Assembly: GCA_030447745.1 (NCBI GenBank) | Contig: JAUJOH010000010.1 | Span: 35,374 to 99,373, forward strand | Reading direction: 5' to 3' | DNA from: Chloroflexota bacterium | Lineage (GTDB): Bacteria > Chloroflexota > Limnocylindria > Limnocylindrales > CSP1-4 | Length of the DNA: 64,000 nt | In this document: positions 41,706-64,000 of the stretch, one piece after another | Layout: each line of letters starts with the position of its first letter | How positions within the stretch are numbered: the stretch's first letter is position 1 | Made by a program: the position numbers and the translations under genes | The notes under the pieces: generated by a model | Database searches by the model: none | Told to the model about the DNA's origin: nothing | Seen by the model: the letters and a program-made list of their open reading frames with translations, nothing else

Positions 41706-42049
41706 CATGAGAAAGTCCCCACTGGTGGCGTCGCCGGTCGCCACACGAGGCGACCGTTCGTTTCACCTGCCCACGGCCGTGGTAGCGGGCGCACAAACCG
41801 CTTCAGCCAGCAACCACGCCCGCTCGATGAAACGGACGAGCCGATGCGAGACCCGGGTTGGGCTCACACGAGGCACGTCGCGGCGAGAACACGGCGACGT
41901 GGCACTTCGCGTGCCACGGGGGTTGGTGGATGAACAAAACCGCACGGCGGCGCGGCTCCCGACCGGGACGTAACGCCGGATCACCTTGAGTGGCGTTTCC
42001 TTGGACCGGACGGATCCGTCATTCAGAAAGGCGAAGGCATTCTCGCAGC

Positions 42050-42754
42050 CTACGGCGCCATCCCGGCCAGGTCGATCTCGCCGGTCAGGACCAGCGCGTC
42101 GTCGACCACCGTCGCGGAGGTGAACCGCAGCGGATCGGCGGGGACCAGCCCGACGCGTGGGCTGCCCGGCACGTTGAGCGCCATCGAAAGCGCGCCGTCC
42201 GGCTCCACGACGATGCGGCCCTCGACCCGGACGAGGAAGAGGTTGAACACGAGACGATCCGGCGCCTGGAGCGAGGCGGACCCGCCGGTGATCCCGGTCT
42301 GCGCCTCCAGCCCGGCGAGCGCCGCCCGCTCGACCTCCGCGGCGGGGATGCGGATCGTTGCTTCGACCGCGTCCGGCGGTCCGACGAGATCCACTCGCTC
42401 GGCCTCGATCGAGGAGCCGCCGGCCGTCCGCAGCGTCACGCCGTCGAGCCGGCCCTCGAGGCCGGCGACCGTTCGCGACTCGAGCTCACCGTCGAGCAGC
42501 ACGAGCTCGACCCGGCGCGCCTGCAGCTGGCCGAACGACACGTCCTCGGAGTCGATCTCGAGGCGGTCTGCGTGCCCGCCGATCAGCTCCCACGGCGGGT
42601 CGGACGCCACGCGGACGGTCGTTCCGGTGCCGCGAAGGCCTGCCGTGGCGAGCGATCCCTCGACCAGCCTGCCCGCGATGCCGGGCCCACCCAGCAACGC
42701 CGCGACGGCAACCAGCAGCGCGACGACACCCGTCAGCGAGACGATGCTGCACAT
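42050..42754 (-). CDS. Hypothetical membrane-anchored protein (N-terminal TM; possibly DUF2993/LmeA-like)
   Basis: MCSIVSLTGVVALLVAVAALLGG, then a 200-aa soluble domain with no recognised catalytic motif. Confidence 0.45.
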   Translation of the reverse strand: MCSIVSLTGVVALLVAVAALLGGPGIAGRLVEGSLATAGLRGTGTTVRVASDPPWELIGGHADRLEIDSEDVSFGQLQARRVELVLLDGELESRTVAGLEGRLDGVTLRTAGGSSIEAERVDLVGPPDAVEATIRIPAAEVERAALAGLEAQTGITGGSASLQAPDRLVFNLFLVRVEGRIVVEPDGALSMALNVPGSPRVGLVPADPLRFTSATVVDDALVLTGEIDLAGMAP

Positions 42755-42757
42755 CCC

Positions 42758-44425
42758 TCAGCGTCCTGCGGCCGGCTCGCCGGACGCGTAACCGAGCGAG
42801 GCGAGCGCGTCGAGGGCGACCCCGCGCTCGTCGTACGGCACCGGACCGGCCGGTCCGATGATCGATCGCTCGTGACCCTTTCCCGCGAGCAGCACCACGT
42901 CGCCCGGTCGCGCGCGCTCGATCGCGGCCGCGACGGCCGCCGGTCGATCAGGGACGAGCAGCAGATCATGGCCGCGGCGCTTGCCGGCCGACTCCGCGCC
43001 ACGGGCGATCTCGTCGAGGATCCCCTCGCGATCCTCGCCCCGCGGGTCCTCGTCCGTGGCGACGACGAGCCGGCACCGCTGACCCGCGATGCGGCCCATC
43101 ATCGACCGCTTGCCGGTGTCTCGTTCTCCCGCCGACCCGAAGACCGCGATGAGCTCCCCGCCGCGCGCGGCGGCGAGTGGCGCGAGCAGCCCGAGGACCT
43201 TCTCCAGCGCCGCCGGGCTGTGCGCGTAGTCGACGACCACGCCGAACGGCTGGCCGGCGTCTACCCGTTCCATCCGACCGGGCACGCCGGTCAGCCCGTC
43301 CAGCCCGGCCCGCACGGCGGCCGCGTCGAGCCCCCACGCGTCACCGAGTGCCACGACGGCGAGCGCGTTGTGCACGTTGAAGCGCCCCGCCAGCTGGAGC
43401 CCCAGGCGAGCCTCGCCGGATGGCGCGGCGAGGGTGACCCGGAGGCGGCGCGCGTCCTCCTCGACCCGGGTCGCCCGGACGTCGGCTGCGGGGTCCGTGC
43501 CGTAGGTGATCACGCGCGCCCGCGCTTCCTGGGCGACGCCGACGAACAGGCCGGCGCTCGGGTCATCGGCGTTGACGACGGCGACTTTCGGCAAGGGACC
43601 ACCCGGCAGCGCTTTCTGTGGGTTGAGCGGACCGGCGGCGAGCCGCTCGAAGAGCGAGAGCTTGGCCCTACGGTACGCCTCCCACGTGCCGTGGAACTCG
43701 AGATGCTCGTGGGTCACGTTGGTCAGGACGGCGGCGTCGTAGGCGATCGCCCCCACGCGCTCGAGCGCAAGGCCATGCGACGTCGTCTCCACGACCGCGG
43801 CGTCGTCCCCCGAGGCCCGCATCGCCTGAAGCGCGGCCTGGAGCGCCGGCGCCTCCGGCGTCGTGGCGTGCTCGGCGTTCGCCTCGCCGATCCCTCCGAT
43901 CCTCGTCTCGACGGTCCCCACGAGCCCGACCGACAGCCCGGCCGCCTCGAGGCCCGCCACCCCGAGGAACGACGTGGGGGAGTTGCCGTCCGGCCCGGGG
44001 AGTCCCGCGACCGCGAGCTCCCGGCGGGGAGCGCGGTCCCACCGGGCGGCGGCGGTCGCGAGGGCGGCCCGCGTGCCGTCGACGACGAGCTGCGGCAGGG
44101 GCGTGCCCGGGACCGCCCGCTCGACGAGCGTCGCGGCGGCGCCCGCCGCGGCGGCCATGGCCACGAAGTCGTGCCCGTCGACGTGCGCGCCGGGAACGGC
44201 GACGAACAGGCCGCGCGGGCGGACGTGGCGCGAGTCGTGGCTGACACCGGCGACCTCGATGCCGGCGAGGGCCGCGGGACCGATCGCCCGGCCGTCGGCG
44301 CGGGCTCCGCGGAGCCGGCCCTCGGCGGCGAGGCGGTCGATCAGCCCGGCGAGCGGGCGCGGTCCTGCCGGTTCGGCGGCGGCCAGGCGTTCGGCGATCG
44401 TCGTCGCCGGCCGGTCCAGCGTCAC
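42758..44425 (-). CDS. murE: Mur ligase family protein, MurE-like (UDP-MurNAc-tripeptide synthetase-like) with degenerate Walker A motif
   Basis: GVSHDSRHVRPRGLFVAVPGAHVDGHDF; DYAHSPAALEKVL; FGSAGERDTGKRSMMG; TDEDPRGEDRE; LLAGKGHE. At the P-loop position it reads GLPGPDGNSPTSF instead of GxTGTNGKTTT. Not in a dcw cluster. Confidence 0.7.
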   Translation of the reverse strand: MTLDRPATTIAERLAAAEPAGPRPLAGLIDRLAAEGRLRGARADGRAIGPAALAGIEVAGVSHDSRHVRPRGLFVAVPGAHVDGHDFVAMAAAAGAAATLVERAVPGTPLPQLVVDGTRAALATAAARWDRAPRRELAVAGLPGPDGNSPTSFLGVAGLEAAGLSVGLVGTVETRIGGIGEANAEHATTPEAPALQAALQAMRASGDDAAVVETTSHGLALERVGAIAYDAAVLTNVTHEHLEFHGTWEAYRRAKLSLFERLAAGPLNPQKALPGGPLPKVAVVNADDPSAGLFVGVAQEARARVITYGTDPAADVRATRVEEDARRLRVTLAAPSGEARLGLQLAGRFNVHNALAVVALGDAWGLDAAAVRAGLDGLTGVPGRMERVDAGQPFGVVVDYAHSPAALEKVLGLLAPLAAARGGELIAVFGSAGERDTGKRSMMGRIAGQRCRLVVATDEDPRGEDREGILDEIARGAESAGKRRGHDLLLVPDRPAAVAAAIERARPGDVVLLAGKGHERSIIGPAGPVPYDERGVALDALASLGYASGEPAAGR

Positions 44426-44464: not shown

Positions 44465-45553
44465 TCAGTCGCCGTCGCGCCGAACCCCGCGGATCTCCTC
44501 GAGGCGGTTCCGGACGCGCAGGGCCGACTCGAAGGCGAGGCAGCCGAGCGGGTCCAGGACGAGGTCCCAGGACCCGACGTACTCGACCAGCCGGCCGCCC
44601 CAGCCCTCCTTGAAGGCGGCGACCGCCGGCGTGGGCAGCCCCCACAGGTCGTAGCGCCGGTACCCCTGCTCCTGTGCCCGCCTGATGGCGTGCCACTTGA
44701 TCAGGTAGTTCGCGCGACGCTTCGCGCCGGCGTCGGTCATCCCACCGTAGAGGTCGTTCGTGGTCGGGCCCCAGCCGATCAGGAAGATCGTGGCGAGCGT
44801 CTCGCCCGCGGACGTCTCCGCAAAGAGCAGGTCGGCGGCCCCGGACGGCGAGTACGCGGCCCACAGGTTGCGGTAGGTCTCCTCGGTCCGGTACGGGATC
44901 CCGGCCCGGATCATCGACTGCACGTGGACGGCGTGGAACTCCGACAGCCGCTCGGCCCCCGCAGGCACGACCGTCGCGCCGTCCCGCCCGGCCTTCGTGA
45001 TCGACTGGCGCCACTTGCGGTGGATGCCCGACCAGACCTCCTCCTCGGGACGGTCGATGTCGAGGACGCGGGTCACGCGCGGGTTCACCTCGGGCGCCCG
45101 GCGCCATCCGGCCCGACGCAGCGCCCGGGCGAGCGAGCCGTCCGGGTCCTCCAGCTCCGGGTCGATCCGGACGTGCGCGACGCGCATCTCCGCGGCCGCC
45201 TCGCGGACCGCCTCCGTGAACGCGCCGATGGCATCGTCGTCGAGCGGTCCGGTCGAGACGGGCCCGCGTGCGGCGTAGCCGAAGCCCCTGGGGAGTGGTC
45301 GCGGACGGCGGACGAGGATCTGCGCACCGATCGGCCCGCGTGGCCCGTCGGCGACGACCCGATGGGCCGTCCATCCGTTCGCCCGCTTGACGGTCGCCCA
45401 CGGCGACGCCTGGAGGTACGAGGAGGCACGCGCCCCGGTGACGAACGCGTCCCAGGCGTCCGGGTCCTGCCGGAGGGTCGCGGCGGCGACGGCGCGGCCG
45501 GTCATCCGCGCCCCCTCCCCCCGGAGCTCGGGCGCGGCGCTCGCGGCGGTCAT
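44465..45553 (-). CDS. FemAB-family aminoacyl-tRNA-dependent peptidyltransferase (FemX-like), paralog 1
   Basis: ASPWATVKRANGW...LYGGMTDAGAKRRANYLIKWHAIRRAQEQGYRRYDLWG. ATG at 45553 overlaps the paralog-2 stop (ATGA). Confidence 0.7.
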   Translation of the reverse strand: MTAASAAPELRGEGARMTGRAVAAATLRQDPDAWDAFVTGARASSYLQASPWATVKRANGWTAHRVVADGPRGPIGAQILVRRPRPLPRGFGYAARGPVSTGPLDDDAIGAFTEAVREAAAEMRVAHVRIDPELEDPDGSLARALRRAGWRRAPEVNPRVTRVLDIDRPEEEVWSGIHRKWRQSITKAGRDGATVVPAGAERLSEFHAVHVQSMIRAGIPYRTEETYRNLWAAYSPSGAADLLFAETSAGETLATIFLIGWGPTTNDLYGGMTDAGAKRRANYLIKWHAIRRAQEQGYRRYDLWGLPTPAVAAFKEGWGGRLVEYVGSWDLVLDPLGCLAFESALRVRNRLEEIRGVRRDGD

Positions 45554-46608
45554 CTGCGCAGGCCCGCGATCAGCCGGCGGACGCGGCGTGCGGCCAGCCC
45601 CGCCCGGTAGACCGCCGGACGGAGGACCGTCTCGTGGGCGCCGGCGGACGCCACCCACTCGGCCCCGAACGAGGCCTTGTGCTCGTAGAGGCCGTAGCCC
45701 GGGTCGCCTGGTTCGGGCCGGCGCCGCGCCCCCGCGGTGTCGACGCCGCCGAGGTCGATCGACGGGTAGCCGGCCTCGACCGCCTCCCGGATGGCATGCC
45801 AGCGGAGCAGGTGCATCGTTCCGGGCAGCTCGCGGCGCATATCAGCCCGGTCGCCCGAAAAGGCAGTCGCCAGGTGGCCTCCCTGGCAGTACGCGAGCAG
45901 CCCCCCGAGCACGCATCCCTGATGGACCGCGAGCCAGAGGCGAGCCTGCCGCGCGTCGAGGACCCGGCGCCACCAGGCCAGGAAGCCCCGGTCCGATGCG
46001 AAGTTGAACCGCCGTCGCTCGGCCGCCGCGTCGACGAGCGCGGCGAACGCCTCCAGGTGCACGCCGCGCGCATCGTCGACGACCTGCGTGCCGGACCGCT
46101 CGGCGGCGCGGATCCGCTGGCGCGCCTGCTTGGAGACGCGCGCGCGGACGGCCTCCAGGTCGTGTCCCGGTTCCCAGCTCAGGATCATCCGGTGGCGCGA
46201 TGGCTGCAGCTCCTCGGTCGGACGGTAGCCGGCGGCGGCAAGAGCCCGATCGTACGCTGGATCCTCGTCGAGCTCCGGGTCCACGGCGAGGATCGTGCCT
46301 CCCTCGCCACGGACCCAATCGGCGAGACCGGCCGCCCGCGCGGCGACCGGTTCCACGCCGTCACCGCCGGAGATCGGCCCGCGGGGCGCGTACGCGACGA
46401 AGCCCGGCAACGGCGGCTGCGGGTGCGTGAGGACGAGCGCCGAGGCCCCGTCGGCGAATCGGAGGAAGTGGGACCGCCAGCCCTGCGCCGCGCGGTGCGC
46501 GGCCCACGCGGTTCCCTGCAGAACGTGACCGCCCGGCGGATCGACGGTCCGGGCGTCCCAGCCGTCGGGCGGCGCCGATGCCGCCCCGACCACCGCGATC
46601 GGCATCAC
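45550..46608 (-). CDS. FemAB-family peptidyltransferase, paralog 2
   Basis: LQGTAWAAHRAAQGW...HLLRWHAIREAVEAGYPSIDLGG. Start is GTG 46608 (GTGA overlap with the paralog-3 stop) or ATG 46605. Confidence 0.7.
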   Translation of the reverse strand: MMPIAVVGAASAPPDGWDARTVDPPGGHVLQGTAWAAHRAAQGWRSHFLRFADGASALVLTHPQPPLPGFVAYAPRGPISGGDGVEPVAARAAGLADWVRGEGGTILAVDPELDEDPAYDRALAAAGYRPTEELQPSRHRMILSWEPGHDLEAVRARVSKQARQRIRAAERSGTQVVDDARGVHLEAFAALVDAAAERRRFNFASDRGFLAWWRRVLDARQARLWLAVHQGCVLGGLLAYCQGGHLATAFSGDRADMRRELPGTMHLLRWHAIREAVEAGYPSIDLGGVDTAGARRRPEPGDPGYGLYEHKASFGAEWVASAGAHETVLRPAVYRAGLAARRVRRLIAGLRR

Positions 46609-47675
46609 GTCGCATCGCCGTCGGTCGTGGCGTCGCCCGTGCCGCCGGGTGCTGCTCCGCCACGGACGCCGTGCCGGAGCCTGGCGGCGCTGACCACGGC
46701 CCGCCGGGCGACGTTCGTGACCGCGTTGCCGAGCCGGTCGACGACCAGGACCCGCCCCCCGACGTACTGCACCTCGCGCCCGCCGAAGCCGGACTTGAAC
46801 CGCTCGATCCCGGCGTGCGCGACGCCCCACATGTCGTAGACCTCAAAGCCGCGCTCGCGCGACGACCGGATCGCCTCCCACTTCAGGAGGTAGTTCGCGC
46901 GCGACCGCGCCCCGGCCTCGGACATGCCGCCGTACGGCTCGATCACGCGCCGGCCACAGGTCAGCAGGAGCAACGCCGCCGCGGGATGCCCGTTCGGCAG
47001 GCGGGCCAGGAGGAGGCGAGCGCGACCGCCCTCGTCGTACGCCCGGAACACGTCCTCGTACGCCTGCCGTGAGCGGTGGACGAACCCCGCTCGGCGTGCC
47101 GTCTCGACGTACAGCCGGTAGAAGTCGTCGATCCCCGCGGCGCCCGCGTCCTCGACCGTCACGCCGGTGCGGCGCGCCTTGGACACGTACTGGCGCCACT
47201 TCGAGCGGAGGTCGCCCCACAGCGCGCCCTCCTCGCGGCGGAGGTCGACGAGCCTGGTCCGATCGGCCTGGATCGAGGCGGTCGGTCGCCAGCCGGCACC
47301 ATCCAGGTGGCCGACCAGCGGGTCGCCCGGCTCGACCTCCGGGTCGACCGTCACCTGCACCAGCCGATGGCGGCGGGCTGCCGCTCGCAGCGCGTCCGTG
47401 AGCGCCGCCACGCCAGCGCCATCGAACTGACCTCCGACGGGGCCGCGCGGTGCATAGCCCACCCGCCACGGGGTTGGCCGGAGGTCCCTGACAAGCAGCT
47501 GCAGCCCGATCGGGCCCGGACCGGTGTCGACGACGAGCCGCAGCGACCGCCAGCCGTTCGCCTGCTTGACCCGGGCCCACGCCGTGAGCTGGGTGTACGA
47601 GCCGGTCGGCGCGGCTTCGACGAATGCGTCCCAGGCGTTGGGATCGGCCCGGAGCGTGTCGGCCGCGGCCGTCAC
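46605..47675 (-). CDS. FemAB-family peptidyltransferase, paralog 3
   Basis: TQLTAWARVKQANGW...PYGGMSEAGARSRANYLLKWEAIRSSRERGFEVYDMWG. GTG at 47675 forms GTGA with the murJ stop. Confidence 0.7.
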   Translation of the reverse strand: MTAAADTLRADPNAWDAFVEAAPTGSYTQLTAWARVKQANGWRSLRLVVDTGPGPIGLQLLVRDLRPTPWRVGYAPRGPVGGQFDGAGVAALTDALRAAARRHRLVQVTVDPEVEPGDPLVGHLDGAGWRPTASIQADRTRLVDLRREEGALWGDLRSKWRQYVSKARRTGVTVEDAGAAGIDDFYRLYVETARRAGFVHRSRQAYEDVFRAYDEGGRARLLLARLPNGHPAAALLLLTCGRRVIEPYGGMSEAGARSRANYLLKWEAIRSSRERGFEVYDMWGVAHAGIERFKSGFGGREVQYVGGRVLVVDRLGNAVTNVARRAVVSAARLRHGVRGGAAPGGTGDATTDGDAT

Positions 47676-49237
47676 GCGGGACGCGGGCGGCGGACCAGCC
47701 CGGTCGCCACGGCGACCAGCGCGGGAAGCTCCGGCGCCCGGAGGAGGAGACTCATCGCGGCGTATCCTACCCCGCCGACCGCGGCCGCCGACACGGCGCG
47801 GACGACGGCCTCGACGAAGCCCGGGCCGTCGATCCCGCGCTGGTCGAGACCCGCCAGGACGGCCAACGCCGCCGCGCCGGCGACCAGCGAACCGACCCCC
47901 GCCCGGACGAACGTCGAGCCGACCGGAGCCAGCCGGAGCGCGGCGAAGCGGCGCTTGAGCAGGACGAGGAGGATGCCGGCCTCGATCCACGCCCCGGCCG
48001 CGATCGCGAACGCGAGCCCGGCCAGCCCGAACGGCCCGACCGCGACCGCGCCCACGACCACATTGACCGCGACGGTGAAGATGGCGGCCGCGACCGGGGT
48101 CATGGTGTCCTGGTCGGCGTAGAAGGCGCGGGCCAGGACGCCGATCAGCGAGTGGGCGGCGAGCCCGATCAGGAAGACGGCCAGCGTCGTCGCCGTCACC
48201 TCGATCGCCGCCGCCGTGAACGCGCCGCGCCCGAACAGCATGGCGACGACCTCCTCGCGCAGCACGATCCCGAGCACGGCGACGGGCAGCATCACGAAGA
48301 GCAGGAGCCGGAGGGCGCGGCCCACCAGGGCGACGTAGTCGGCGATCGCGCCGGCGGCCAGCTCGTGCGACAGCGCCGGCAGGATCACGATCCCGAGCGG
48401 CACGCCGATCACGCCGAGCGGGATCTGGAGCAGCGCCATCGCGATGTTGAAGGCGGACACGGACCCCGCGGCAAGGGCCGACGCGAATGCGGTCATGGCC
48501 AGGAACGTGACCTGCGTGGCCCCCAGCCCGAGCGCGCGCGGCGCCATCAGGACGAGGACGCGACGCGACAGCGGCTCGTCGAGGTCGATCCTCGGCTGGT
48601 ACCGGAACCCGACGCCGAACATCGGGCGGACCTGGACGAGCAGGTGACCGAGCGCCCCGACGACCACCCCGACGGCGAGGCCCGTGACGCCGAGCGCCGG
48701 GGCGAGGAAGATGGCGCCGCCGAGGATCCCGAGGTTGTAGGCGATCGGCGCGAGGGCCGAGGCGGCGAAGCGACCGCGAGCGTTCAGCACGCTCGTGGCG
48801 ACGGCGCCGAGCGCGAGCAGGATCGGGCTGAGCAGCATGATGCGGGTCAGCTCGACCGTCCGGGCCAGCTCCGCCGGGCCGAACCCCGGCGCGATCGCCG
48901 GCACGAGCAGTGGCGCGAGCACGAACAGGACCACGGCCAGCACGAGCAGCGCGGCCAGCATCAGGTTCATGACCGTCGAGACCACGCGCCACGCCCGCGC
49001 GTCGTCGTTCGTCGCAAGCAGGCCGGAGACGATCGGGATCACGGCGGACCCGAGGGCACCGGCGGCGACGAGCTGGAAGACGAGGTCCGGGATCCGGAAG
49101 GCCGCGTAGAAGGTATCGAGCTCGCGGCCGATGTTGAACGTCGTCGCGATGACGACGACGCGGACGTATCCGAGGGCCCGCGAGGCGAGGAATGCCGCCG
49201 TCACGATGAGGCCCGCCTGGGCGAGCCGGCGGTTCAT
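47672..49237 (-). CDS. murJ: Lipid II flippase MurJ (MviN family), copy 1
   Basis: MNRRLAQAGLIVTAAFLASRALGYVRVVVIATTFN... with 14 predicted TM helices of the MOP/MVF fold. Confidence 0.8.
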   Translation of the reverse strand: MNRRLAQAGLIVTAAFLASRALGYVRVVVIATTFNIGRELDTFYAAFRIPDLVFQLVAAGALGSAVIPIVSGLLATNDDARAWRVVSTVMNLMLAALLVLAVVLFVLAPLLVPAIAPGFGPAELARTVELTRIMLLSPILLALGAVATSVLNARGRFAASALAPIAYNLGILGGAIFLAPALGVTGLAVGVVVGALGHLLVQVRPMFGVGFRYQPRIDLDEPLSRRVLVLMAPRALGLGATQVTFLAMTAFASALAAGSVSAFNIAMALLQIPLGVIGVPLGIVILPALSHELAAGAIADYVALVGRALRLLLFVMLPVAVLGIVLREEVVAMLFGRGAFTAAAIEVTATTLAVFLIGLAAHSLIGVLARAFYADQDTMTPVAAAIFTVAVNVVVGAVAVGPFGLAGLAFAIAAGAWIEAGILLVLLKRRFAALRLAPVGSTFVRAGVGSLVAGAAALAVLAGLDQRGIDGPGFVEAVVRAVSAAAVGGVGYAAMSLLLRAPELPALVAVATGLVRRPRPA

Positions 49238-49338: not shown

Positions 49339-50997
49339 TCACGACCGCCCCCGACGGTGCAGCAGGTCGGTCATGAGCGCGATCATCGAGGCGAGCTCCG
49401 GGATCCGCAAGACGACGCTCAGCACCAGGTAGACGGCCCCGAACGCGACCGTCACCAGGACCGACTGCGCGACGAGCGCGAGCGGGCCGGGATCCGGTCC
49501 GATGAGGCCGTCGATCGCATAGAGCGCGAGCAGCCCCAGCGCACCGGCGACGACCGTCGCCAGGGCGGCCTCGAGGCCGACCCGCACGACGTCGCCGACG
49601 CCGAGCGACGGCAGCCTCCGCGTGAGCAGCACGATCAGCACGGCCGCCTCGATCCACGCCGCGACGGCGATCCCGGTCGCGATGCCGGCGAGCCCGAGCG
49701 GACCGACGAGCAGCGTGGCAAGGACGGTGTTGACGACGACCGCGAGGACGGCCGCGCCGACCGGAGTTCGGGTGTCCTGCCGGGCGTAGAACGCCCTCGC
49801 CAGCAGCGCGATCAGCGCGTGCGCCGCGAGGCCGCCCAGGAAGAACAGCAGCGCGTTCGCCGTCAGGTCGATGTAGGTGCTCCCGAGACCCGGGAACAGG
49901 ACCGTGACGACCTGCCGGCGGAGGATCGCGAGCAGCCCGGCGATCGGCAGCATCACGTACAGCAGCAGCCGCAGGCCGCCCGTGACGAGCCCTACGTACT
50001 CGCGCTCGCGGCCGGCCGCCGCGACCCGCGCGAGCGACGGGAACACGACCACCCCGAGCGGAACGCCGATGACGCCGACCGGGATCTGGAGCAGCGTGAA
50101 CGCGGCGTTGTAGGCGGTGACGGCGCCGGTGCCGAGCATCGTCGCCAGCGAGGTGACGACGACGAACGTGATCTGGCTGGCTCCCAGCCCGACCGCACGT
50201 GGCGCCATCAGTCGGAGCGTCTGACGCGCCCGATCGTCAGCAAGGGCCGCCACCGGTTCGTACCGGAAGCCGATGCGCCGCAGCCCGGGCAGCTGGACGA
50301 GGAGATGCGCGAGCGATCCCACGACCACGCCGATCGCCAGCCCCTGCACGCCGAGGCTCGGGGCGAGGAGGACGGCGCCCGCGATGATCGCGACGTTGTA
50401 GACGATCGGCGCCATGGCCGCCGCGGCGAACCGGCCGGAGGCGTTCAACACGCTCGTCGCCACGGCTCCGAGCGCCAGGAACACGGGGCTCAGGAGCATG
50501 ATCCGCGTCAGCTCGACGGTGCGCGCCGTGTAGAGCGCGTCGAAGCCGGGCGTGATCGCCGGCACGATCGCCGGGGCCGCGACGGAGAGCCCCACCGCCA
50601 GCACGGCGAGGGCGATCAGCATCACGTTCGTGACCGTCGATACGACTCGCCACGCCCGCTCGTTGGCGTCGGCCGCCAGCAGGGTGGCCACGATCGGGAT
50701 CAGGGCCGACCCCAGCGCGCCGGCGGCGACCAGCTGGAAGACGAGGTCCGGCAGCCGGAAGGCGGCGAAGAAGGCGTCGAGATCCGCCGATGCGCCGAAC
50801 GTGTTGAGGACCACCACCGTGCGCACCCAGCCGAGCGCCCGGGAGGCGAGAAACGCCCCCGAGACCACGATTCCCGCGATCGCCAGTCTCCGGCCACGGC
50901 CGGCCGGCGGCGCCGAAGGACCGGGAGTGTCCGCTGCCCGCCCCGGGTGCGCGACCGCCGTCGGAGGGTCGATCGGGCCGGTGCGCCCGCTCGTCAA
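49339..50997 (-). CDS. murJ: Lipid II flippase MurJ (MviN family), copy 2
   Basis: RLAIAGIVVSGAFLASRALGWVRTVVVLNTFG...; paralogous to copy 1. Start uncertain: TTG 50997 (TTGA overlap with the xerC stop) or GTG 50955. Confidence 0.7.
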   Translation of the reverse strand: MTSGRTGPIDPPTAVAHPGRAADTPGPSAPPAGRGRRLAIAGIVVSGAFLASRALGWVRTVVVLNTFGASADLDAFFAAFRLPDLVFQLVAAGALGSALIPIVATLLAADANERAWRVVSTVTNVMLIALAVLAVGLSVAAPAIVPAITPGFDALYTARTVELTRIMLLSPVFLALGAVATSVLNASGRFAAAAMAPIVYNVAIIAGAVLLAPSLGVQGLAIGVVVGSLAHLLVQLPGLRRIGFRYEPVAALADDRARQTLRLMAPRAVGLGASQITFVVVTSLATMLGTGAVTAYNAAFTLLQIPVGVIGVPLGVVVFPSLARVAAAGREREYVGLVTGGLRLLLYVMLPIAGLLAILRRQVVTVLFPGLGSTYIDLTANALLFFLGGLAAHALIALLARAFYARQDTRTPVGAAVLAVVVNTVLATLLVGPLGLAGIATGIAVAAWIEAAVLIVLLTRRLPSLGVGDVVRVGLEAALATVVAGALGLLALYAIDGLIGPDPGPLALVAQSVLVTVAFGAVYLVLSVVLRIPELASMIALMTDLLHRRGRS

Positions 50998-52002: not shown

Positions 52003-54426
52003 TCACGCGTCGGACGCGGCCTCGGTGGCGTTGCGCCCGGTGGCAGCCTTCGCCCGACCACCGCTCCGTGCTCGTCCGGCACCCGCCGGAGCCCGACCGT
52101 TCCGGCGTCCGCCGCCACGCGCGGGACGCGCGAGCGCCTCGGGGTTCGGCGGCCCGCCCGTCAGTCGTCGGCCGGCGAGATCGCCGTCTGGCAGCACCAC
52201 GTCCGCGCCGCATTTCAGGCACAGCGCGCCGTCGCCCTTGCGTGCCACTGGACCGTCGTCCGAGTCATGGACGGCGCCCACCGGCTCCGAGTTGGTGGTG
52301 TAGTCGCACCTCGGGTAGTTCGAGCAACCCCAGAAGACGTTCCCGGTCCGCCGGGCGCGGCGCGGCACGAGGTGGCCGTCGCCGTTCTTCGGGCAGGTCA
52401 CCTCGAAGGGCAGCGGTTCGGGTGGCGGCGGGCCCTCCTTCCGGATGAAGTCGCACTCCGGATAACGTGAGCAGCCGACGAACGGGCCGAAACGGCCGCG
52501 CCTGGCGACGAGCGTCCCCTCGCCGCACCTCGGGCACGTCTCACCCTCGCCCTCCTGGGGCGGCGGCTCCTCGCCCGGCAGCGGCCGCGTCTCCTTGTGA
52601 TCCGGATACGTGGAGCAGGCGAGGAATCGGCCGTTGCGCCCAAGGCGGATGACCATCGAATGGCCCTCCGAGCAGACCTCGTCCGTCTCCTCCGTGGTGA
52701 AGTCCTTCCGCCGCAGCTCACGCCGCTTCTCGTCGACCCGGTCCCGCAGCGGGCCGTAGAAGCCGCGCAGCAGCGGCACCCATGCCCGCTCGCCGCGGGC
52801 GACCTCGTCGAGCTCGTCCTCCATCCGCGCCGTGAACGCCAGGTCGACGTAGTCGCCGAAGTGCTCCACGAGCAGGTCCGTGACGATCTCCCCGATCAGC
52901 TCCGGCCGGAGCCGGCGGTCCTCGACCCGCACGTACCCGCGGTCGAGGATCGTGGAGATCGTGGCCGCGTACGTCGACGGGCGGCCGATCCCGTGCTCCT
53001 CGAGCGCCTTGATCAGCGCCGCCTCCGTGAAGCGCGGCGGTGGCTCCGTGAAGTGCTGCGTTGGCTCGACCTCGCGGACCTCGGTCTCGTCACCCGCGGC
53101 AAGCTCCGGCAGGCGGCGCTCCTGCTCGTCTTCGGCACCGTCGTCGCGGCCCTCCGTGTAGACAGCCGAGAACCCGTCGAACAGCGTGCGAGTCGCGCTC
53201 GCGCGGAGATCGTAGGGCGCCGCGTCGAGCTCGACGATCGTCGTCTCCATCTCCTTCGACGCCATCTGCGAGGCGACGGCCCGCTGCCAGATCAGGCGGT
53301 AGAGCCGCAGCTCGTCTGGCTTGAGGTGGCCGGCCAGCGAGTCCGGGTCCCGCCGGAAGCTCGTCGGCCGGATCGACTCGTGCGCCTCCTGGGCCCCCTT
53401 CGCCTTGGTCCTGTAGACGCGGCCCTTGGGCATCGTGTAGCGGTCACCGAAACGCTGGCCGATGACCTCCCGGGCATCACGCATCGCGACGCCCGCGATG
53501 GCCGTGGAGTCCGTCCGCATGTAGGTGATCAGGCCGACGTGGCCGTCCGGCGTGTCGACGCCCTCGTACAGCCGCTGCGCGACGGACATCGTCCGCTTCG
53601 GGCTGTAACCGAGCTTCCGGCTCGCCTCCTGCTGGAGCGTCGAGGTCGTGAACGGCGGCGCGGGGTTGCGCTTGAGCGGCCGTGTCCCGACGCTGCGCAC
53701 GACGGGTCGCCGCTCCCGCAGCGCGGCGGCGTGGCGCTCGGCCGTCGCCGCGTCGCCGACGTCGATCGCTTGACCGTCGATCCGGACAAGATCCGCGCTG
53801 AACGTCTCGCCGGTCTGTGTCGCGAGCGTCGCCTCGAGCGTCCAGTACTCGCGGGCCACGAAGGCATTGATTGCCCGCTCGCGCTCGACGACGAGCCGCA
53901 CCGCGACGGACTGGACGCGGCCCGCGGACAGGCCGCCCCGGACCTTCCGGGACAGCAGCGGGCTGAGCGTGTAACCGACGAGCCGGTCGACGATCCGACG
54001 GGTCTGCTGGGCGTCGACGAGGTTCGTGTCGATGCCCCGCGGATGGTCGAAGGCGTCGCGGATCGCGCCCTCCGTGATCTCGCTGAAGATGACCCGGCGC
54101 GTCTTCTCGGCGGGCACGCCCGCGGCCTCCGCGACGTGCCACGCGATCGCCTCGCCCTCGCGGTCGAGGTCCGTGGCGAGATAGACGGTGTCTGCCCGCT
54201 TCGCCTCGCGCGCGATCGTGTCGACCTGCTTCCGGCGGTCGTCGCTGACCACGTACTCCGGCTCGAAATCGCGGTCGACGTCCACGCCGAACTTGCCCTT
54301 GCCGGGATTGTCCGGCAGGTCACGGACGTGGCCGTACGAGGCCACGACGCGGTAGTCGCCGCCGAGATAGCGTTCGATCGTCCGCGCCTTGGCAGGCGAT
54401 TCCACGATCACGAGGTGCCTGGGCAT
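52003..54426 (-). CDS. topA: DNA topoisomerase I
   Basis: MPRHLVIVESPAKARTIERYLG (Toprim), catalytic Tyr region, C-terminal C4 zinc ribbons and a basic tail. Confidence 0.9.
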   Translation of the reverse strand: MPRHLVIVESPAKARTIERYLGGDYRVVASYGHVRDLPDNPGKGKFGVDVDRDFEPEYVVSDDRRKQVDTIAREAKRADTVYLATDLDREGEAIAWHVAEAAGVPAEKTRRVIFSEITEGAIRDAFDHPRGIDTNLVDAQQTRRIVDRLVGYTLSPLLSRKVRGGLSAGRVQSVAVRLVVERERAINAFVAREYWTLEATLATQTGETFSADLVRIDGQAIDVGDAATAERHAAALRERRPVVRSVGTRPLKRNPAPPFTTSTLQQEASRKLGYSPKRTMSVAQRLYEGVDTPDGHVGLITYMRTDSTAIAGVAMRDAREVIGQRFGDRYTMPKGRVYRTKAKGAQEAHESIRPTSFRRDPDSLAGHLKPDELRLYRLIWQRAVASQMASKEMETTIVELDAAPYDLRASATRTLFDGFSAVYTEGRDDGAEDEQERRLPELAAGDETEVREVEPTQHFTEPPPRFTEAALIKALEEHGIGRPSTYAATISTILDRGYVRVEDRRLRPELIGEIVTDLLVEHFGDYVDLAFTARMEDELDEVARGERAWVPLLRGFYGPLRDRVDEKRRELRRKDFTTEETDEVCSEGHSMVIRLGRNGRFLACSTYPDHKETRPLPGEEPPPQEGEGETCPRCGEGTLVARRGRFGPFVGCSRYPECDFIRKEGPPPPEPLPFEVTCPKNGDGHLVPRRARRTGNVFWGCSNYPRCDYTTNSEPVGAVHDSDDGPVARKGDGALCLKCGADVVLPDGDLAGRRLTGGPPNPEALARPARGGGRRNGRAPAGAGRARSGGRAKAATGRNATEAASDA

Positions 54427-54566
54427 CGGCCGGAGTCTAGCACCGGCCCCTTGGCGCTCAGTCACCTCCGAGGCACCGTGCCAGCTGGATCGCCCGCCCT
54501 AACCGAGGTGCGGGGCGGGATCGGCCAGGGGCGGGATCGGCGACGCCATCCCGCATCGGCGGACCG

Positions 54567-55851
54567 TCATCCGCCCGGCTGCCGGCGAACGGACCCGTCG
54601 ACCCGTGCCGCGAGCAACCCGGCCGGTCGATAGCGTCCGTACGCGTCGACCACCAGCCCGCGCATCTCGAGCATGGTGAGCGCGGTCAGGACCGACGAGA
54701 CCGGGAGCGCGGTGGCCGCGACCAGCTCGTCCACGGTCGTATGGCCGGCCAGCAGCTGTCCCGCCACCGTCCGCGGCACCTCGCCGACCTCGCCGAGCGA
54801 GGCCGCGACGGAGCGCGGGACGACGTGCCACCGTCGAGGTCGGTCCGGACCAGGTCGAGATCCTCGAGCAGCTGCGATACGCCGGCCACGATCCCGGCCA
54901 CGCCCGGCGCGTCACGGAGGAGCGACAGGCAGCCCGCGCTCGTCAGGCGGTCGATCGGCCCCGGAACGACGAAGCAGTGACGTCCCTGCTCGAGCGCCCA
55001 GTGGGCCGTGACGAGTGCGCCGCTGCGCGCGCCGGCCTCGACCACGACCGTGGCGTCCGACAGGCCGCTGATGATCCGGTTTCGGCGCGGAAACGTCCCA
55101 CGCGTCGGCTCGACGTCCGGCGGCAGCTCGGACACGACCGCGCCGCCGCCGTCGATGATCGCGTCGACCAGCCGCCGATGCGACCGCGGGAACAGCCGCT
55201 CGTGCCCACCGCCGAGCACGGCCACCGTCGTGCCGCCCTCGGCGAGGCACGCGGCGTGCGCGGCACCGTCGATGCCCACCGCAAGACCGGAAACGACCGC
55301 TGCGCCGGCCCGCGTGACGGCGCCCGCGATCCGGGCGGCGGTCAGCCGACCCGCCTCCGACGGGCGGCGCGTCCCGACCACCGCCACGGCGCGGGCCGTG
55401 CCAAGGGCGGCGCGATCGCCGCGGAGGAACAGGACGTGGGGCGGCACCTCGATCGCCCGGAGGCGGGGCGGGTAGTCCTCGTCGTCGAGCGTGACGAGGC
55501 CCACGCCGGAGCGGTCGATCCCGGCCAGCGTCGCCTCCGCGCTGCGGGCCGAGGCAACGACCGCGCGGATCACCCCGTCGGTGCCTGTCGCTCCGCCGAG
55601 CTGGCGGCGTCGGCAAGCGACGCCTCGTCGCCGCGTGCTGCGGCCTCGAGGACTGCTCGTGCCGAGCCCACGGCCGAGACGAGACGCCCCAGGGTGATCG
55701 GACCGAGGCCGTCGACGCTCACCAGGACGGCAAGCGCCTGCCGTTCCGTCAGGCCACCGGGCGAAGCGTCCGGCGGCCCCGCCGGCTCGGATGGCGCCGG
55801 CCGGATGGCGAGACCCGGCCCCAGAGGTCTGGTGCGGCCGACCCCCAGCAT
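54567..55851 (-). CDS. dprA: DNA processing protein DprA (Smf), read through two apparent frameshifts (near 55575 and 54800)
   Basis: N-terminal SAM-like segment LTERQALAVLVSVDGLGPITLGRL (ORF 55570..55851); Rossmann core GIDGAAHAACLAEGGTTVAVLGGG (ORF 54686..55573); C-terminal winged helix RTVAGQLLAGHTTVDELVAATALPVSSVLTALTMLEMRGLVVD (ORF 54567..54779). Confidence 0.75.
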
Positions 55852-57207
55852 CAGCTGGCCATCCGCTGCGCCAGCCTGCTTGCCGGCGGTCGCGCGCGGC
55901 CTCCTCGAGGTGGACCGCCTCGACGGATTCCGAACTGGCCAGGTCCGCGATGGTCCGAGCGACGCGGATCAGGCGCTCGGTCCCCGCCCGGACAGGCGCT
56001 CCAGCTCCGCGAGGTCCACGGCACGCCGCTCCGCGGTCGGTCCATCCTTGCCGCCACCCGGAGCGCCCGGCCGCGGACGCGGGCGTTGAGTGCCCCTGGC
56101 GGTCGTCCCGCCTGGCGCAGTCGGGCGGCCGCGATCCGCTCGGCGACCACGCTCGACGTCTCGGGCGTCGCCCCGGTCACGAGCGCGGTGGCCGGGACGC
56201 GCGGCATCGTGGCCCAGATGTCGATCCGGTCGCGCAGCGGTCCGAGATGCGGGCGGCATATCGGTCCGCCACGGTGTCCGGGCACCGGCACTCCGGGTGT
56301 GCCGGCGAGGCCGCACGGGCACGGGTTCATCGCCGCCACGAGCTGGAAGCGGGCCGGGAAGATCGTCGCGCGCCCGACCCTCGAAGATGGCGACGCGCCT
56401 GGCGGAGGGCCTCGATGACGGCGACGGCCGAACTCCCGGCAGCTCGTCGAGGAACAGGGTCGCGTCTGCCAGGGTCACCTCGCCCGGCGAGAGCCGCGGC
56501 CCCCCGCCGACCATCGCCGCGTAGGAGAGCGTGTGGTGTGGGGCGCGGAACGGCGGCCGCCGAACGAGTGTCCGCACGGGCCCGTTGCCGGACACCGACG
56601 CGATGACGGTCGCGGTCAGCGCGGCGCTGTCGCCGAGCGGCGGCAGCACGCCGGGAATCGTCCGTGCCAGGAGCGTCTTGCCGGAGCCGGGCGGCCCGAT
56701 CAGCAGGATCCCGTGCCCGCCGGCGAGCGCGATCTCCAGCGCCCGCCGCGCCTCGAGCTGCCCATGCACCTCGGCCAGATCCGGCACGACGTCTCCCCCA
56801 ATGGCGTCCGGCGGCACGGCGGCCGGTGCCTCGCGTCCCGCCGCCTCGATCCGCTCCGGCGCTCCCCGCGACCGCCGACGCGAACGGCTCGAGCGGACGA
56901 CGTCGACGGCCGCGCCGAGCGACGCCACCGCGACCACGTCCACGCTGTCCGCGAGACGGGCCTCGTCCGCGGCCGCCGCCGGCACCACCACGCGGGTGGC
57001 GCCGCGACGCGCCAGCGCAGCGACCATCGGCAGCACGCCCGGCACGACCCGCACCTCGCCACCGAGCGACAGCTCGCCGATGAGCGCCAGACCTCCGGGT
57101 GCGGCGTGCACCTGCTCAGAGCCGAGAAGGATCCCGATCGCGATCGCGAGGTCAATGGACGACCCGGCCTTGCGCAGGTCCGCCGGGGCGAATAGTGAGA
57201 TATGGCG
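55851..57207 (-). CDS. comM: Mg-chelatase-like AAA+ ATPase ComM/YifB, 5'-truncated (about 70 N-terminal codons missing) and with internal frameshifts
   Basis: ISLFAPADLRKAGSSIDLAIAIGILL (Lon-like N-domain), LLIGPPGSGKTLLARTIPGVLPPL (Walker A), FRAPHHTLSYAAMVGGG, LFLDELP (Walker B), then MAAMNPCPCG in another frame. The reading frame opens only at 57207, directly after a TAG. Confidence 0.7.
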
Positions 57208-57904: not shown

Positions 57905-58380
57905 ATGATGCGCTACAACGCGTGGGCGAACCGGACGCTGTTGGATGCCTGCCGAGAGCTGACCGACCAGCAGCTCGATGCCCGTCTTCCGGTCACGTCG
58001 GGATCCAGCCGTGAACTGCTGATCCACATCATCGGCGGCCAGCAGACATTCGCGCTGCGCACGAGGGGTCGCCAGCATGAGGGGGAGCTGCATCGGGGCA
58101 GTGCCTGGCCGGGTATGGACGAGATCATCCGACTGGCCGCGAGCACGAACGAGGAGCTCATCTCGATGCCGAGCAGCTCGACCCTGAGCATGAGACCGAT
58201 CTCCCGTACCTCGGCACTGTGTATCGGTATCCAACTCGCTTCTTCCTCGTCCATGCGGCCGCGCACGGGGTCGAGCACCGCGCCGAGGTGAAGCTCAACC
58301 TCGCGCACATCGGCGTCGACACGCCCGATATGGACGGCTGGGCCTACGGTGAAGCGACCGGATACGGTGCCGAAGTCTGA
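57905..58380 (+). CDS. DinB-family protein with a frameshift near 58190
   Basis: MMRYNAWANRTLLDACRELTDQQLDARLPVTSGSSRELLIHIIGGQQTFALR... then in the +1 frame DAEQLDPEHETDLPYLGTVYRYPTRFFLVHAAAHGVEHRAEVKLNLAHIGVDTPDMDGWAYGEATGYGAEV-stop. Confidence 0.6.
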
Positions 58381-58499
58381 CTGCGGACGGTGTGGCACGC
58401 CAGGACGCCGCAGGCTAGCGGCCGCTCGCTCCCATCATTCGGTTCTCGCGACGGGCTGTGCCGCACGAATGGCTCGCGGCATCCGCCTAAGATCACATG

Positions 58500-58856
58500 T
58501 CAGGGTGATTGCTGGTGGAGGAGCAGCTTCCACTCGCCGTTCCGTCGGACATAGACGCTCGACATCGCCGCTTCGTATCGCGCCTGGCCCGGCCGTTCGC
58601 CCACGGCCTTATAGGTGATCAACGCGACGTCATCGTCGCCAGTGACGCGGACAGCGCTCAACTCATAGCTAGACCATGGAGCGACTTGGGGGATGGTGCC
58701 GAGCGAAGCCTTCTTGTCCATCACCATGCCGGGGAAGACCATCAGTCCCTCCTCGGCCATGATGTCCTCGTAGAACGCCGCTCCGCCCGGACCGGACAGC
58801 GCATCCCAGCCTTGGCGCTCTAGCCCGTCTACCTCGGCGCGCAGTGCGTCGTTCAC
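58500..58856 (-). CDS. SnoaL-like / DUF4440 (NTF2-fold) protein
   Basis: 118 aa: ...AFYEDIMAEEGLMVFPGMVMDK...YVRRNGEWKLLLHQQSP. Confidence 0.55.
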   Translation of the reverse strand: MNDALRAEVDGLERQGWDALSGPGGAAFYEDIMAEEGLMVFPGMVMDKKASLGTIPQVAPWSSYELSAVRVTGDDDVALITYKAVGERPGQARYEAAMSSVYVRRNGEWKLLLHQQSP

Positions 58857-59059
58857 ACCGCGAGTATGTGCAAGCGTCTTGCCCTAAGTCCAGCAGTGCC
58901 GGGATCTCCTCGCAGGTCCAGATATGGTCCGCGGCGCCTGCGGCGTCGTCCGCCGAGTCGCCTGACACGCATTTATGAAGGAGCGGCCGGTGTCAATGGG
59001 CGTCGCTCGATCGGCTCATCGATGCTCCGAGCGGCCAATGCGGCTGGCAGAATCGACGG

Positions 59060-59455
59060 ATGTTCGCCGTCGAGAATCGTGAACGCGTTCGAGATCATGT
59101 GCTGGCCCGAGCTCACTCGGATCCCGCCATCGTCGCCGCGGCCTTCGTCGGGTCCTTCGCCGGAGGCACGGACGATCGCTGGTCGGACCTGGATCTGACG
59201 TTCGCAGTAGCAGAGGGCCAGGCGGTTGATGAAGTCCTCGAGGAGTGGACTCGCTGGTTCTCACGAGACTTCGAGGCGCTCCGGCTCTTCGACTGGCCGG
59301 TGCCGCCCACCATCTATCGGGTGTTCCTCTTGCCGGGCAGCCTGCAGGTTGATCTCTCGTTCACGGCCGTCAAGCTGGGCCGCGAAGTGGTTATCGGCCA
59401 GCCCGCCACTCACGACGTCCGGGCGGGGGGTGCAGGTTTGCGTGATAGAGGCTAG
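59060..59455 (+). CDS. Nucleotidyltransferase-domain protein (aminoglycoside/antibiotic adenylyltransferase-like), possibly truncated
   Basis: AAFVGSFAGGTDDRWSDLDLTFAV (Pol-beta-like NT motif GS...D.D). 131 aa is short for the family. Confidence 0.45.
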   Translation: MFAVENRERVRDHVLARAHSDPAIVAAAFVGSFAGGTDDRWSDLDLTFAVAEGQAVDEVLEEWTRWFSRDFEALRLFDWPVPPTIYRVFLLPGSLQVDLSFTAVKLGREVVIGQPATHDVRAGGAGLRDRG

Positions 59456-60098
59456 CCCGGGCACAACCCGCCCTCCTTATCGAGTATTGCTTGCCGCCGC
59501 GCTTCCGGCTCCTGGAATTGGCTGTTCGAGGGCAGGGCGCATCCCCGCGCCCGAAGGGTACCCGCTTTCACTTACGTGTCGCAGAGAGCAGGACCATGGA
59601 GCAACTGAGCGGGATTCGAATCAGGGGACGGAGGCCGCTCGATCGTGGTGACCGGCGTGCCAATGCGACAGCAGATAACTCGACGCTCTACGCCCCCCAC
59701 CCACGCACGGTGCTACAGCGCATCGGCCGGGATGGTCCGAGGTTAGCAAGCCAGTCACTAACCACCGTTAGTGGCGGCGCTGGCAGTTCATGACGCACAC
59801 CGACCTGCGCTTGAGGGCCGACGGCCTCGACTTCTGGGTCGACGTACACGTTCACCCTTCGACGGCGGATGGCTGGCGGTGGCCGACCTCGCCGGCGAGC
59901 CGGAGCTTCGGTGGGCATACGAGGCGGCCGGTGCCGTCAAGACGGCCGCCGGGCTTGGCCCGGTCGCCCGCCGTCGCTGCTGTGGCTCAACGGGAGCTTA
60001 GCGACCAATAGGCATCACGTACGTATCCTAGGCGACCACTTTTCCTCTTACCCAGAGGGTCGCAGTGCGCTAATTCACTACGCAACCAGTTTTTGCGA

Positions 60099-60905
60099 TC
60101 ACTCGCTGCGGCTCCTGGAGAGCCTCTTATCGCCGAGGCGAACGCACTTCATCTCGCGACGGTCGTGAAACCGCGCGGTCGAGTCGGCTTGTTGGCCGAC
60201 TTCTTGCCCGCGGCCCCACGAATCTCCTCCACGGACACCGAGTCTCCGAATAGCAGCCGGGCCTGTCATCCATGGAGTCCCTGAACATCGCCTGCCTTCG
60301 TCAACGTCAATCCTGCTTGTGACAAGCTGCTCCTGACGCAACTCAGCGCGCCGCGTCCGTCCGGCGCCACAATCATCGAACGGCTGTTCTGATACGGGTC
60401 CAAGGCTGCATTACAGGATGCGAACCAGATGGTGTTCTCTGCCGCACGCGTAACAATCATCGAATGGTGATCCAACTTCGCGCGGCGGTGTGTGGTGTTG
60501 TTCTGAGGATGGAAGACGATCTGTGCGCCCTGGCGAACGATCAGCAGTGGTCGCGGCGAACGGAAGCCTTCGAAGCAGATAACAACACCAACTCGGACCC
60601 CTTGGATATCGAAGGTCTCAATCGAGCCTCCGGCCGAGTACGCCAGGGCGTCTAAGGGCGTGAGTTTTGTCTTGTGGTGGTGCCCTGCAGGATCCCGCAG
60701 GTCCTATGACCACCGCAGAGTTGTATCTGTGCCATCCGCCAGATTTGGCGTCTCCGTACCAAGAATGCAACCGATCCTCGTTGGGCACATCGCATGGCGA
60801 GCTGTGCAGGGATGATGCGGCGGGGCTTGGCGCCCGCGGATCGACAATGTCGACGGTAACCGACGGTTTGCGCGGAAAGCACAGGATGTCAACTCCAGGC
60901 CACAT
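60099..60905 (-). pseudogene. Carbon-nitrogen hydrolase (nitrilase/amidase superfamily) remnant, multiple frameshifts
   Basis: Fragments in three frames: WPGVDILCFP...HRYNSAVVIGPAG; MIVTRAAENTIWFASCNA; SRIDVDEGRRC. Lower GC than the rest of the window. Confidence 0.45.
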
Positions 60906-60992
60906 AGTCTATGTACCGCAGGATCGTTTCGGCGTTCGCATCGAAGTCATTCGTCTGACGGACCTGCGCGAGTCCGATCGTCAGCGGGCGCA

Positions 60993-61633: not shown

Positions 61634-61656
61634 CTAGATCCTCCAGTCATCCCTCG

Positions 61657-62994: not shown

Positions 62995-63006
62995 AGCCCT
63001 TCAAGC

Positions 63007-63036
63007 TTGACAGGGAAGGAGGTCACAGCCTACCAT
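63007..63036 (+). promoter_or_regulatory. Candidate sigma70-like promoter for the IclR regulator in the divergent intergenic region
   Basis: TTGACA (63007-63012), 18-nt spacer, TACCAT (63031-63036); 26 nt upstream of the iclR ATG at 63062. Confidence 0.3.
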
Positions 63037-63061
63037 CCCCGCAGGTCGCTATACGAGCAAT

Positions 63062-63847: not shown

Positions 63848-64000
63848 CGCTCGCTATCTCGCCGTCTGGCTCAACATCGAGGTGATTGCGGCCGGCGTCA
63901 ATAGCACCTTTCGTGCTGGAACCTCTATGGCATCACAATCGGCACCTTTGGTCACGTTGGAGACGGCAATCTGCACCCGACCCTCGTCCTGCCACGGGGA

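Follow-up and report, generated by a model that had tools for sequence, protein, structure and literature searches.

What do three consecutive FemAB-family genes contribute to the cell wall of a bacterium of the Ca. Limnocylindria, an abundant soil and freshwater group? The question is raised by a stretch of 64,000 nucleotides from a Chloroflexota bacterium (assembly GCA_030447745.1, contig JAUJOH010000010.1, positions 35,374 to 99,373 of the forward strand). We call this whole stretch the window. Its genes fem1, fem2 and fem3 lie side by side, preceded by two genes for the lipid II flippase MurJ and followed by a gene for a MurE-type ligase. We consider it likely that they encode aminoacyl-tRNA-dependent FemABX transferases, which act in sequence to branch the peptidoglycan stem peptide at its position-3 diamino acid.

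Three maintained fem genes

At about 73% G+C, the window contains long spurious open reading frames (ORFs) in all frames, and codon-position G+C was used to pick the real ones. An earlier note on this DNA had placed three tandem FemAB-family genes in 44465-47675. They are indeed there, as three minus-strand ORFs matching Pfam FemAB (PF02388, threshold 24 bits) with 120.3 bits (Fem1), 67.5 bits (Fem2) and 98 bits (Fem3):

Fem1, 46605..47675, minus strand: 356 amino acids (aa) from a GTG start; FemX-like FemAB-family transferase, first-position ortholog
Fem2, 45550..46608, minus strand: 352 aa from GTG; divergent FemAB-family transferase, second-position ortholog
Fem3, 44465..45553, minus strand: 362 aa from an ATG start; second FemX-like paralog, a rare lineage-specific third copy

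The overlapping Acetyltransf_6 model matches all three proteins too. Third-position G+C of the three frames is 0.87-0.94, and the ratio of nonsynonymous to synonymous substitution rates (dN/dS) against the nearest relative is 0.14 for fem1, 0.16 for fem2 and 0.19 for fem3. From these values and the Pfam scores we conclude that the fem genes are real and maintained. Like the two neighbouring murJ genes, murJa (dN/dS 0.13) and murJb (0.10), all three are under purifying selection.

Fem1 and Fem3 are 44% identical, and Fem2 shares 30-32% with either of them; these are the pairwise values whose calculation the earlier note had proposed. The core motif that the note ascribed to all three proteins is present in Fem1 (GGMSEAGARSRANYLLKWEAIR) and in Fem3 (GGMTDAGAKRRANYLIKWHAIR), whereas Fem2, unlike both, reads SGDRADMRRELPGTMHLLRWHAIR at this place.

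Each start was also said to overlap the previous stop by 1-4 nucleotides (nt). Overlapping stops and starts are seen at MurJ/Fem1 (GTGA), at Fem1/Fem2 (GTGATG, overlap of 4 or 1 nt) and at Fem2/Fem3 (ATGA). For Fem2, the alternative start ATG 46605 would give 351 aa, the length of a public protein that is 100% identical (P0257). Fem3 has a second candidate start at ATG 45505 (346 aa) with GGAGG just upstream. The 16 codons between its two candidate starts have a nearly neutral dN/dS of about 0.7 (the remainder of the gene has 0.17), and they encode a stretch that is disordered in the structural model and variable in length among homologs. For these reasons the Fem2/Fem3 overlap is plausible rather than certain. 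Overlapping starts are available at the XerC/MurJa and MurJa/MurJb junctions as well, so that an overlapping stop and start is on offer at each junction from xerC through fem3, and such overlaps are not particular to the fem genes. The genes of the operon are probably co-transcribed and probably translationally coupled.

Two FemX-like proteins and one remodelled paralog

In public annotation pipelines the proteins already carry the names FemAB-family or 'lipid II:glycine glycyltransferase'. We judged their relation to characterised Fem enzymes by PDB bit scores and fold scores. In sequence, Fem1 and Fem3 both match Staphylococcus aureus FemX (PDB 6SNR) best, with 77 and 72 bits, and they match Weissella viridescens FemX (FemX_Wv) with 57 and 54 bits; their matches to FemA are weak. 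AlphaFold2 models of Fem2 and Fem3 reached a predicted local distance difference test score (pLDDT) of 94 and 91, respectively. Their top Foldseek matches are 6SNR, FemX_Wv and FemA (PDB 1LRZ), with query-normalised TM-scores (TMq) of 0.69-0.79 and E-values from 1e-18 to 1e-27, and lipid aminoacyl transferases of the MprF type are far weaker matches (E 1e-10). S. aureus FemX is also the best fold match of the Fem3 model, which fits FemX_Wv with a target-normalised TM-score (TMt) of 0.80 and a root mean square deviation of 2.8 Å. The Fem1 profile aligns to the Fem3 profile with a probability of 100%, and the Fem2 model is a complete, confident double-GNAT fold.

The 63-residue coiled-coil arm of S. 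aureus FemX comprises residues 235-297 (PMC8280954). Aligned to 6SNR, Fem1 and Fem3 pass from residue 234 straight to 298, and the models of Fem2 and Fem3 lack a long helical hairpin at this place. By these alignments and models, all three proteins are without the staphylococcal arm and belong to the compact type of FemX_Wv. The latter, a UDP-MurNAc-pentapeptide:L-Ala transferase (PDB 1NE9, 4II9), resembles the window proteins in size (about 335-360 aa), in its double GNAT domain and in the missing arm, but is only about 24-25% identical to them.

We aligned 179 Limnocylindria Fem proteins with FemX_Wv, whose residue numbers are used throughout. Lys305 of FemX_Wv is catalytic (PMC9723616, PMC12945691). 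All three window proteins have its equivalent, which is kept in 86/88 members of the Fem1 clade, 69/71 of the Fem2 clade and 4/4 of the Fem3 clade; that of Asp108 is conserved in every Fem clade (69/71 in the Fem2 clade). Fem1 and Fem3 also keep the equivalents of Lys36, Trp39, Arg211, Tyr256 and Phe304. Among these, Lys36 and Arg211 hold the phosphates and the D-Ala-D-Ala of the unbranched precursor (PMC2655667). Lys36 is found in 84 and Arg211 in 86 of the 88 Fem1-clade proteins, window Fem1 included, and Fem3 likewise has K at 36 and R at 211. Four other residues of FemX_Wv, Asn38, Tyr103, Thr209 and Tyr215, are not conserved in the window proteins.

In Fem2 most acceptor residues of FemX_Wv are missing. 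Window Fem2 has R at 36 and A at 211; its clade has R at 36, Gly, Ala or Ser at 211, His or Phe at 256 and His at 304, so the acceptor-pocket positions have been replaced systematically.

Multi-residue bridges made by several Fem paralogs that work on the same stem peptide are known from S. aureus (FemX, FemA and FemB; PDB 6SNR, 1LRZ) and from Streptococcus pneumoniae (MurM and MurN). The femAB and murMN genes form tandem operons too. The earlier note had likened the triplet to FemX, FemA and FemB, one gene for each. This analogy turned out to be loose: the coiled-coil arm is missing, and, compared with the staphylococcal series, the window has two FemX-like genes, both of which look like initiators, and a divergent one. 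It differs from the staphylococcal and streptococcal systems in two further respects, namely that its fem genes share one operon with murJ and murE and that Fem1 and Fem2 are fused in some of its relatives.

The murJ-fem-fem-murE operon in Limnocylindria

Homologs of all three proteins are numerous (50-85% identity), and all named ones come from metagenome-assembled genomes (MAGs) of Chloroflexota / Ca. Limnocylindria (Limnocylindrales). An actinobacterial origin of the window is therefore rejected, and the comparison with high-G+C lineages of the Streptomyces type, made in the earlier note, does not apply; Limnocylindria genomes themselves average 68.9% G+C (PMC10608941). A scan with one genome per species gave 80 loci, essentially all labelled as MAGs of Chloroflexota, Chloroflexia or Limnocylindrales; their identity to Fem1 does not exceed 71%. 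We then mapped the window proteins by tblastn onto 83 loci, of which 59 span murJ to relA. The order topA-xerC-murJ-fem-fem-murE-(small protein)-relA is kept throughout the mapped loci, and fem genes lie between murJ and murE in 59/59 spanning loci, in these architectures:

murJ-fem-fem-murE: 42/59 loci
third fem before murE: 6/59 loci
third fem after murE: 6/59 loci
fem-murE-fem-fem: 2/59 loci
four fem genes: 1/59 loci
one fem gene: 1/59 loci
two murJ and three fem genes (the window): 1/59 loci

The number of fem genes per relative lineage thus ranges from one to four. Two are the rule in the class; at least three are present in 16/59 loci, and the triplet, described before as uncommon, is a common variant there. 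The nearest metagenomic relative (84-91% protein identity) shares the layout of two murJ and three fem genes; its identical sequence was recovered twice (L084 and L085). Together with the Pfam matches, the predicted fold and the catalytic lysine, the association with murJ and murE supports both the FemAB assignment and the role in a peptidoglycan bridge that the earlier note had suggested.

A neighbour-joining tree of the 179 Fem proteins from related loci resolved four clades. The first holds the first-position proteins, with window Fem1, which adjoins murJ in all relatives, and the second holds the second-position proteins, with window Fem2. The third consists of window Fem3 and the proteins of L001 and L004 among the species-level loci, together with those of L084 and L085. 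The fourth is a separate 'alternative third Fem', present in 16 loci. Fem1 was found in every relative and Fem2 in nearly every one. These clades point to the pair of Fem1 and Fem2 as the ancestral unit and to the third gene as a variable add-on. Since the first-position clade as a whole is the sister group of the Fem3 clade, an origin of Fem3 by recent tandem duplication is ruled out.

In five loci, belonging to two groups of the tree, Fem1 and Fem2 are joined in frame by a linker of 25-35 residues, so that one ORF of 702-714 aa encodes both (L008:7992-10112, L009:7992-10100 and L010:8001-10124 in one group; L043:1740-3878 and L047:2606-4750 in the other). We argue from these fusions that the two proteins work together physically. 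Such an association could also mean that Fem2 assists Fem1 without catalysis or as a regulator, being the pseudo-enzyme subunit of a heterodimer, in which case the count of Fem proteins would overstate the residues added. Fem2 is the most divergent paralog and has lost the equivalents of Lys36, Arg211 and Phe304, as would suit such a partner. However, the Lys305 and Asp108 equivalents retained in its clade, a dN/dS of 0.16 and the complete fold of its model speak against this, and we regard a purely accessory Fem2 as unlikely. Our preferred reading remains that Fem2 is itself a transferase.

Two MurJ flippases and a non-canonical MurE

The products of both flippase genes of the window match the MurJ models. 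MurJb scores 281 bits with Pfam MurJ and 320 bits with TIGR01695 (cutoff 235), and MurJa scores 293 and 301 bits, respectively. The closest species (L001, L004 and L005) have one MurJ each, and MurJb groups with these, which identifies it from sequence as the vertical ortholog of the relatives' single murJ; in L084 and L085 its gene call has 521 aa. MurJa is 54% identical to MurJb and groups with MurJ proteins of distant Limnocylindria lineages (L050, L030), and a recent tandem duplication is ruled out for this gene as well. A second MurJ was found in 0/58 other complete species-level loci and is present in the nearest relative (L084/L085).

The second flippase bears on the role of Fem3, as the same lineage carries both. 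Fem3 could be an alternative initiator or a bridge-modifying factor instead of the third step of a series, using another first amino acid or another precursor and giving rise to a second kind of branch. Precedents for second branches are MurM alleles, VanK and the Fem homologs of lysostaphin immunity. Fem3 keeps all conserved acceptor-pocket residues of FemX_Wv exactly as Fem1 does, its clade is sister to the first-position clade and not to that of the elongators, and a third Fem is a variable element of the operon whose type and position differ among relatives, most of which have none. On the other hand, the annotated parts of the window hold no van genes, lytic-enzyme genes or immunity context, L001 and L004 have Fem3 without a second MurJ, and residue conservation cannot surely separate an enzyme that accepts the first residue from one that accepts a later one. 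We therefore treat a separate branch made by Fem3 as possible but doubtful, and keep sequential branching of the stem peptide as the main reading.

The MurE ligase passes the general cutoff of TIGR01085 (419 bits against 257) and falls below every equivalog cutoff for diaminopimelic acid (DAP) or Lys. Its motif TDEDPRGE aligns, as TDEDPR, with TDDNPR of Mycobacterium tuberculosis MurE, and 62/74 related loci have this same TDEDPR (EDPR and not DNPR). In DNPR, the distal carboxylate of DAP is bound by the Asn and the Arg; S. aureus MurE, which adds Lys, has DNPA (PMC3829189). The MurE of Thermotoga maritima, which uses lysine in vivo, reads DDPR, and the Arg of the motif is kept in EDPR as it is there. 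EDPR differs from both DNPR and DNPA, and the sequence therefore gives no prediction of the residue at position 3.

Proposed mechanism

According to these data, a sequence of events can be proposed. MurE would install the diamino residue at position 3 of the stem peptide. Fem1 would then add the first branch residue to the unbranched precursor; we propose it as the initiator because it is present in every relative, adjoins murJ and keeps the residues that hold the pentapeptide in FemX_Wv. Fem2 would extend the branch by means of its remodelled acceptor pocket, a role proposed because it is nearly universal, is at times fused to Fem1 and has kept the catalytic Lys while its pocket changed. Fem3 may add a further residue or start an alternative branch. 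The resulting side branch would be the future cross-bridge, and MurJ, with two copies here, would flip the finished lipid II across the membrane. By analogy with Weissella, the compact architecture gives a hint that the acceptor might be the nucleotide precursor.

Some observations weigh against this reading. The equivalog family NF047883 (UDP-MurNAc-pentapeptide-lysine N6-alanyltransferase FemX, NCBIfam) is matched with only 66.4, 27.6 and 67.0 bits by Fem1, Fem2 and Fem3, far under its cutoff of 500, so no specific function transfers by orthology. Phe304 of FemX_Wv stacks on C75 of the tRNA and is said to be shared by all Fem transferases (PMC9723616). Fem1 and Fem3 have it, but Fem2 has His, like 66/71 members of its clade, which makes this clade an exception to the rule. 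The order from Fem1 to Fem2 to Fem3 is suggested by residue patterns and gene order only. The class is without a described culture (PMC10608941), and in the literature we found nothing specific on Fem genes or peptidoglycan type in Limnocylindria. In addition, frame breaks in other genes of the contig leave the quality of the sequence open to doubt, although the operon from topA to murE is intact.

One more such point is that the best PDB sequence match of Fem2 is not a peptidoglycan enzyme but Sbb17, an aminoacyl-tRNA-dependent peptide synthase (37 bits, against 33 for S. aureus FemX), and that Foldseek gives the Fem2 model the same E-value for Sbb17 as for the FemX structures. The earlier note had named clustering with non-peptidoglycan transferases as an outcome that would refute its reading; Fem2 touches on this marginally. 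The three genes might accordingly act outside peptidoglycan, in tRNA-dependent synthesis of a natural-product peptide or, as a weak sub-threshold match of Fem2 to LPG_synthase_C could indicate, in lipid aminoacylation. Sbb17 and Sba18 (PDB 9WQW, 9WQY), which are streptothrisamine-binding natural-product enzymes, share the fold class of Fem2. They are shorter (about 290-310 aa), however, and the lead of Sbb17 over S. aureus FemX is 4 bits. For Fem1 and Fem3, the matches to Fem enzymes of peptidoglycan synthesis are far better than those to Sbb17 or MprF. The operon contains murJ and murE, in an arrangement kept at all 59 spanning loci, and no biosynthetic-cluster genes or other natural-product context lie nearby, the neighbours being topA, xerC, relA, hisS and aspS. 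This genomic context outweighs the near tie of Sbb17 and FemX for Fem2, and a function outside the cell wall seems to us highly implausible. We thus retain peptidoglycan branching as the function of the three genes.

It is tempting to go further and imagine a self-contained, class-wide 'position-3 module', composed of the EDPR MurE, an obligate pair of Fem1 and Fem2 (fused in some lineages) and MurJ. With its second FemX-like enzyme and its second, non-sister MurJ, the window lineage might then produce two branched forms of lipid II that differ in their chemistry, each with its own flippase. If true, an uncultured group of phylum level would have a dimorphic cell wall; we consider this extension improbable.

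For Limnocylindria, a monoderm envelope and a normal pathway of peptidoglycan synthesis have been predicted (bioRxiv 10.1101/2021.08.23.457424). For these bacteria, the conserved murJ-fem-fem-murE operon predicts an indirectly cross-linked, branched peptidoglycan, with a bridge whose length or composition would vary among lineages, which have one to four Fem genes. This bears on their response to beta-lactams, lysins and bridge-specific endopeptidases. What is known of the Fem enzyme family itself is unchanged; branching is an ordinary function, here in a poorly known lineage. The analysis adds the lineage, the class-wide operon, the fusions of Fem1 with Fem2, the distinction of FemX-like from remodelled pockets, and the non-canonical MurE motif. 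Compact Fem enzymes free of the coiled coil, together with natural Fem-Fem fusions, also lend themselves to studies of how paralogs share out acceptor specificity.

The operon and its surroundings

The fem genes are part of a tightly packed minus-strand operon with the order xerC, murJ, murJ, fem1, fem2, fem3, murE and a gene for a 234-aa protein. Its other features are:

52003..54465, minus strand: topA, upstream of xerC
50994..~51989, minus strand: tyrosine recombinase of the XerC/XerD type (Pfam Phage_integrase), start codon uncertain, directly upstream of murJ
49339..50997, minus strand: MurJa, the other paralog of the lipid II flippase, about 552 aa when read from a TTG overlapping the stop of xerC
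47672..49237, minus strand: MurJb, lipid II flippase, 521 aa from ATG 49237, its stop overlapping the Fem1 start
42758..44425, minus strand: MurE-type ligase, 555 aa (TIGR01085)
42050..42754, minus strand: gene that closes the operon, for a conserved hypothetical protein of 234 aa whose N-terminus is hydrophobic
41939..41951, minus strand: terminator-like hairpin and T-run from a consensus scan, about 100 nt downstream of the last gene

The recombinase scores 276 bits with TIGR02224 XerC, under the cutoff of that family. Gaps of 39 nt and 3 nt separate fem3 from murE and murE from the gene of the 234-aa protein; beyond a further gap follow relA, hisS and aspS. The terminator scan found 4 sites where 2.3 were expected, and it is therefore weak evidence for the hairpin. 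A promoter scan gave no sigma-70-like site, the sigma-70 consensus being uninformative for this phylum. The 234-aa protein matches no Pfam or NCBIfam family, even at E = 10, and has homologs of 30-37% identity at the same position in many related loci; L001 has a gene for an M14 peptidase in its place. A search for dedicated cell-wall tRNAs and RNA regulators near the operon found none: ARAGORN gave 0 tRNA genes and Rfam 0 matches in the whole window. The region is ordinary chromosomal core, and not a mobile element or a biosynthetic cluster.

Elsewhere in the window, the alanyl-tRNA synthetase gene (23094..26034, minus strand) is split over three reading frames. Positions 1-152 of Pfam tRNA-synt_2c lie in ORF 25324..26034, positions 151-428 in ORF 24398..25900, and positions 425-551, with the SAD and DHHA1 domains, in ORF 23094..25403. 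The breaks are not at homopolymer runs, and the split comes either from indel errors of the assembly or from an essential gene that is broken. Similarly, dprA and comM (Mg-chelatase-like), at 54609..57090 on the minus strand, are each spread over three frames in comparison with the intact orthologs of L001 and L003, and may be pseudogenes or assembly errors. A gene of the YceG/MltG family (endolytic transglycosylase; 17873..19363, minus strand) lies among housekeeping genes and is a further cell-wall gene of the window, unlinked to the operon. Finally, G+C falls to 0.60-0.65 in positions 58001..64000, compared with about 0.73 elsewhere, and this stretch, which may be an acquired segment, includes two annotated genes:

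61657..62994, minus strand: D-serine dehydratase-like protein
63062..63847, plus strand: IclR regulator

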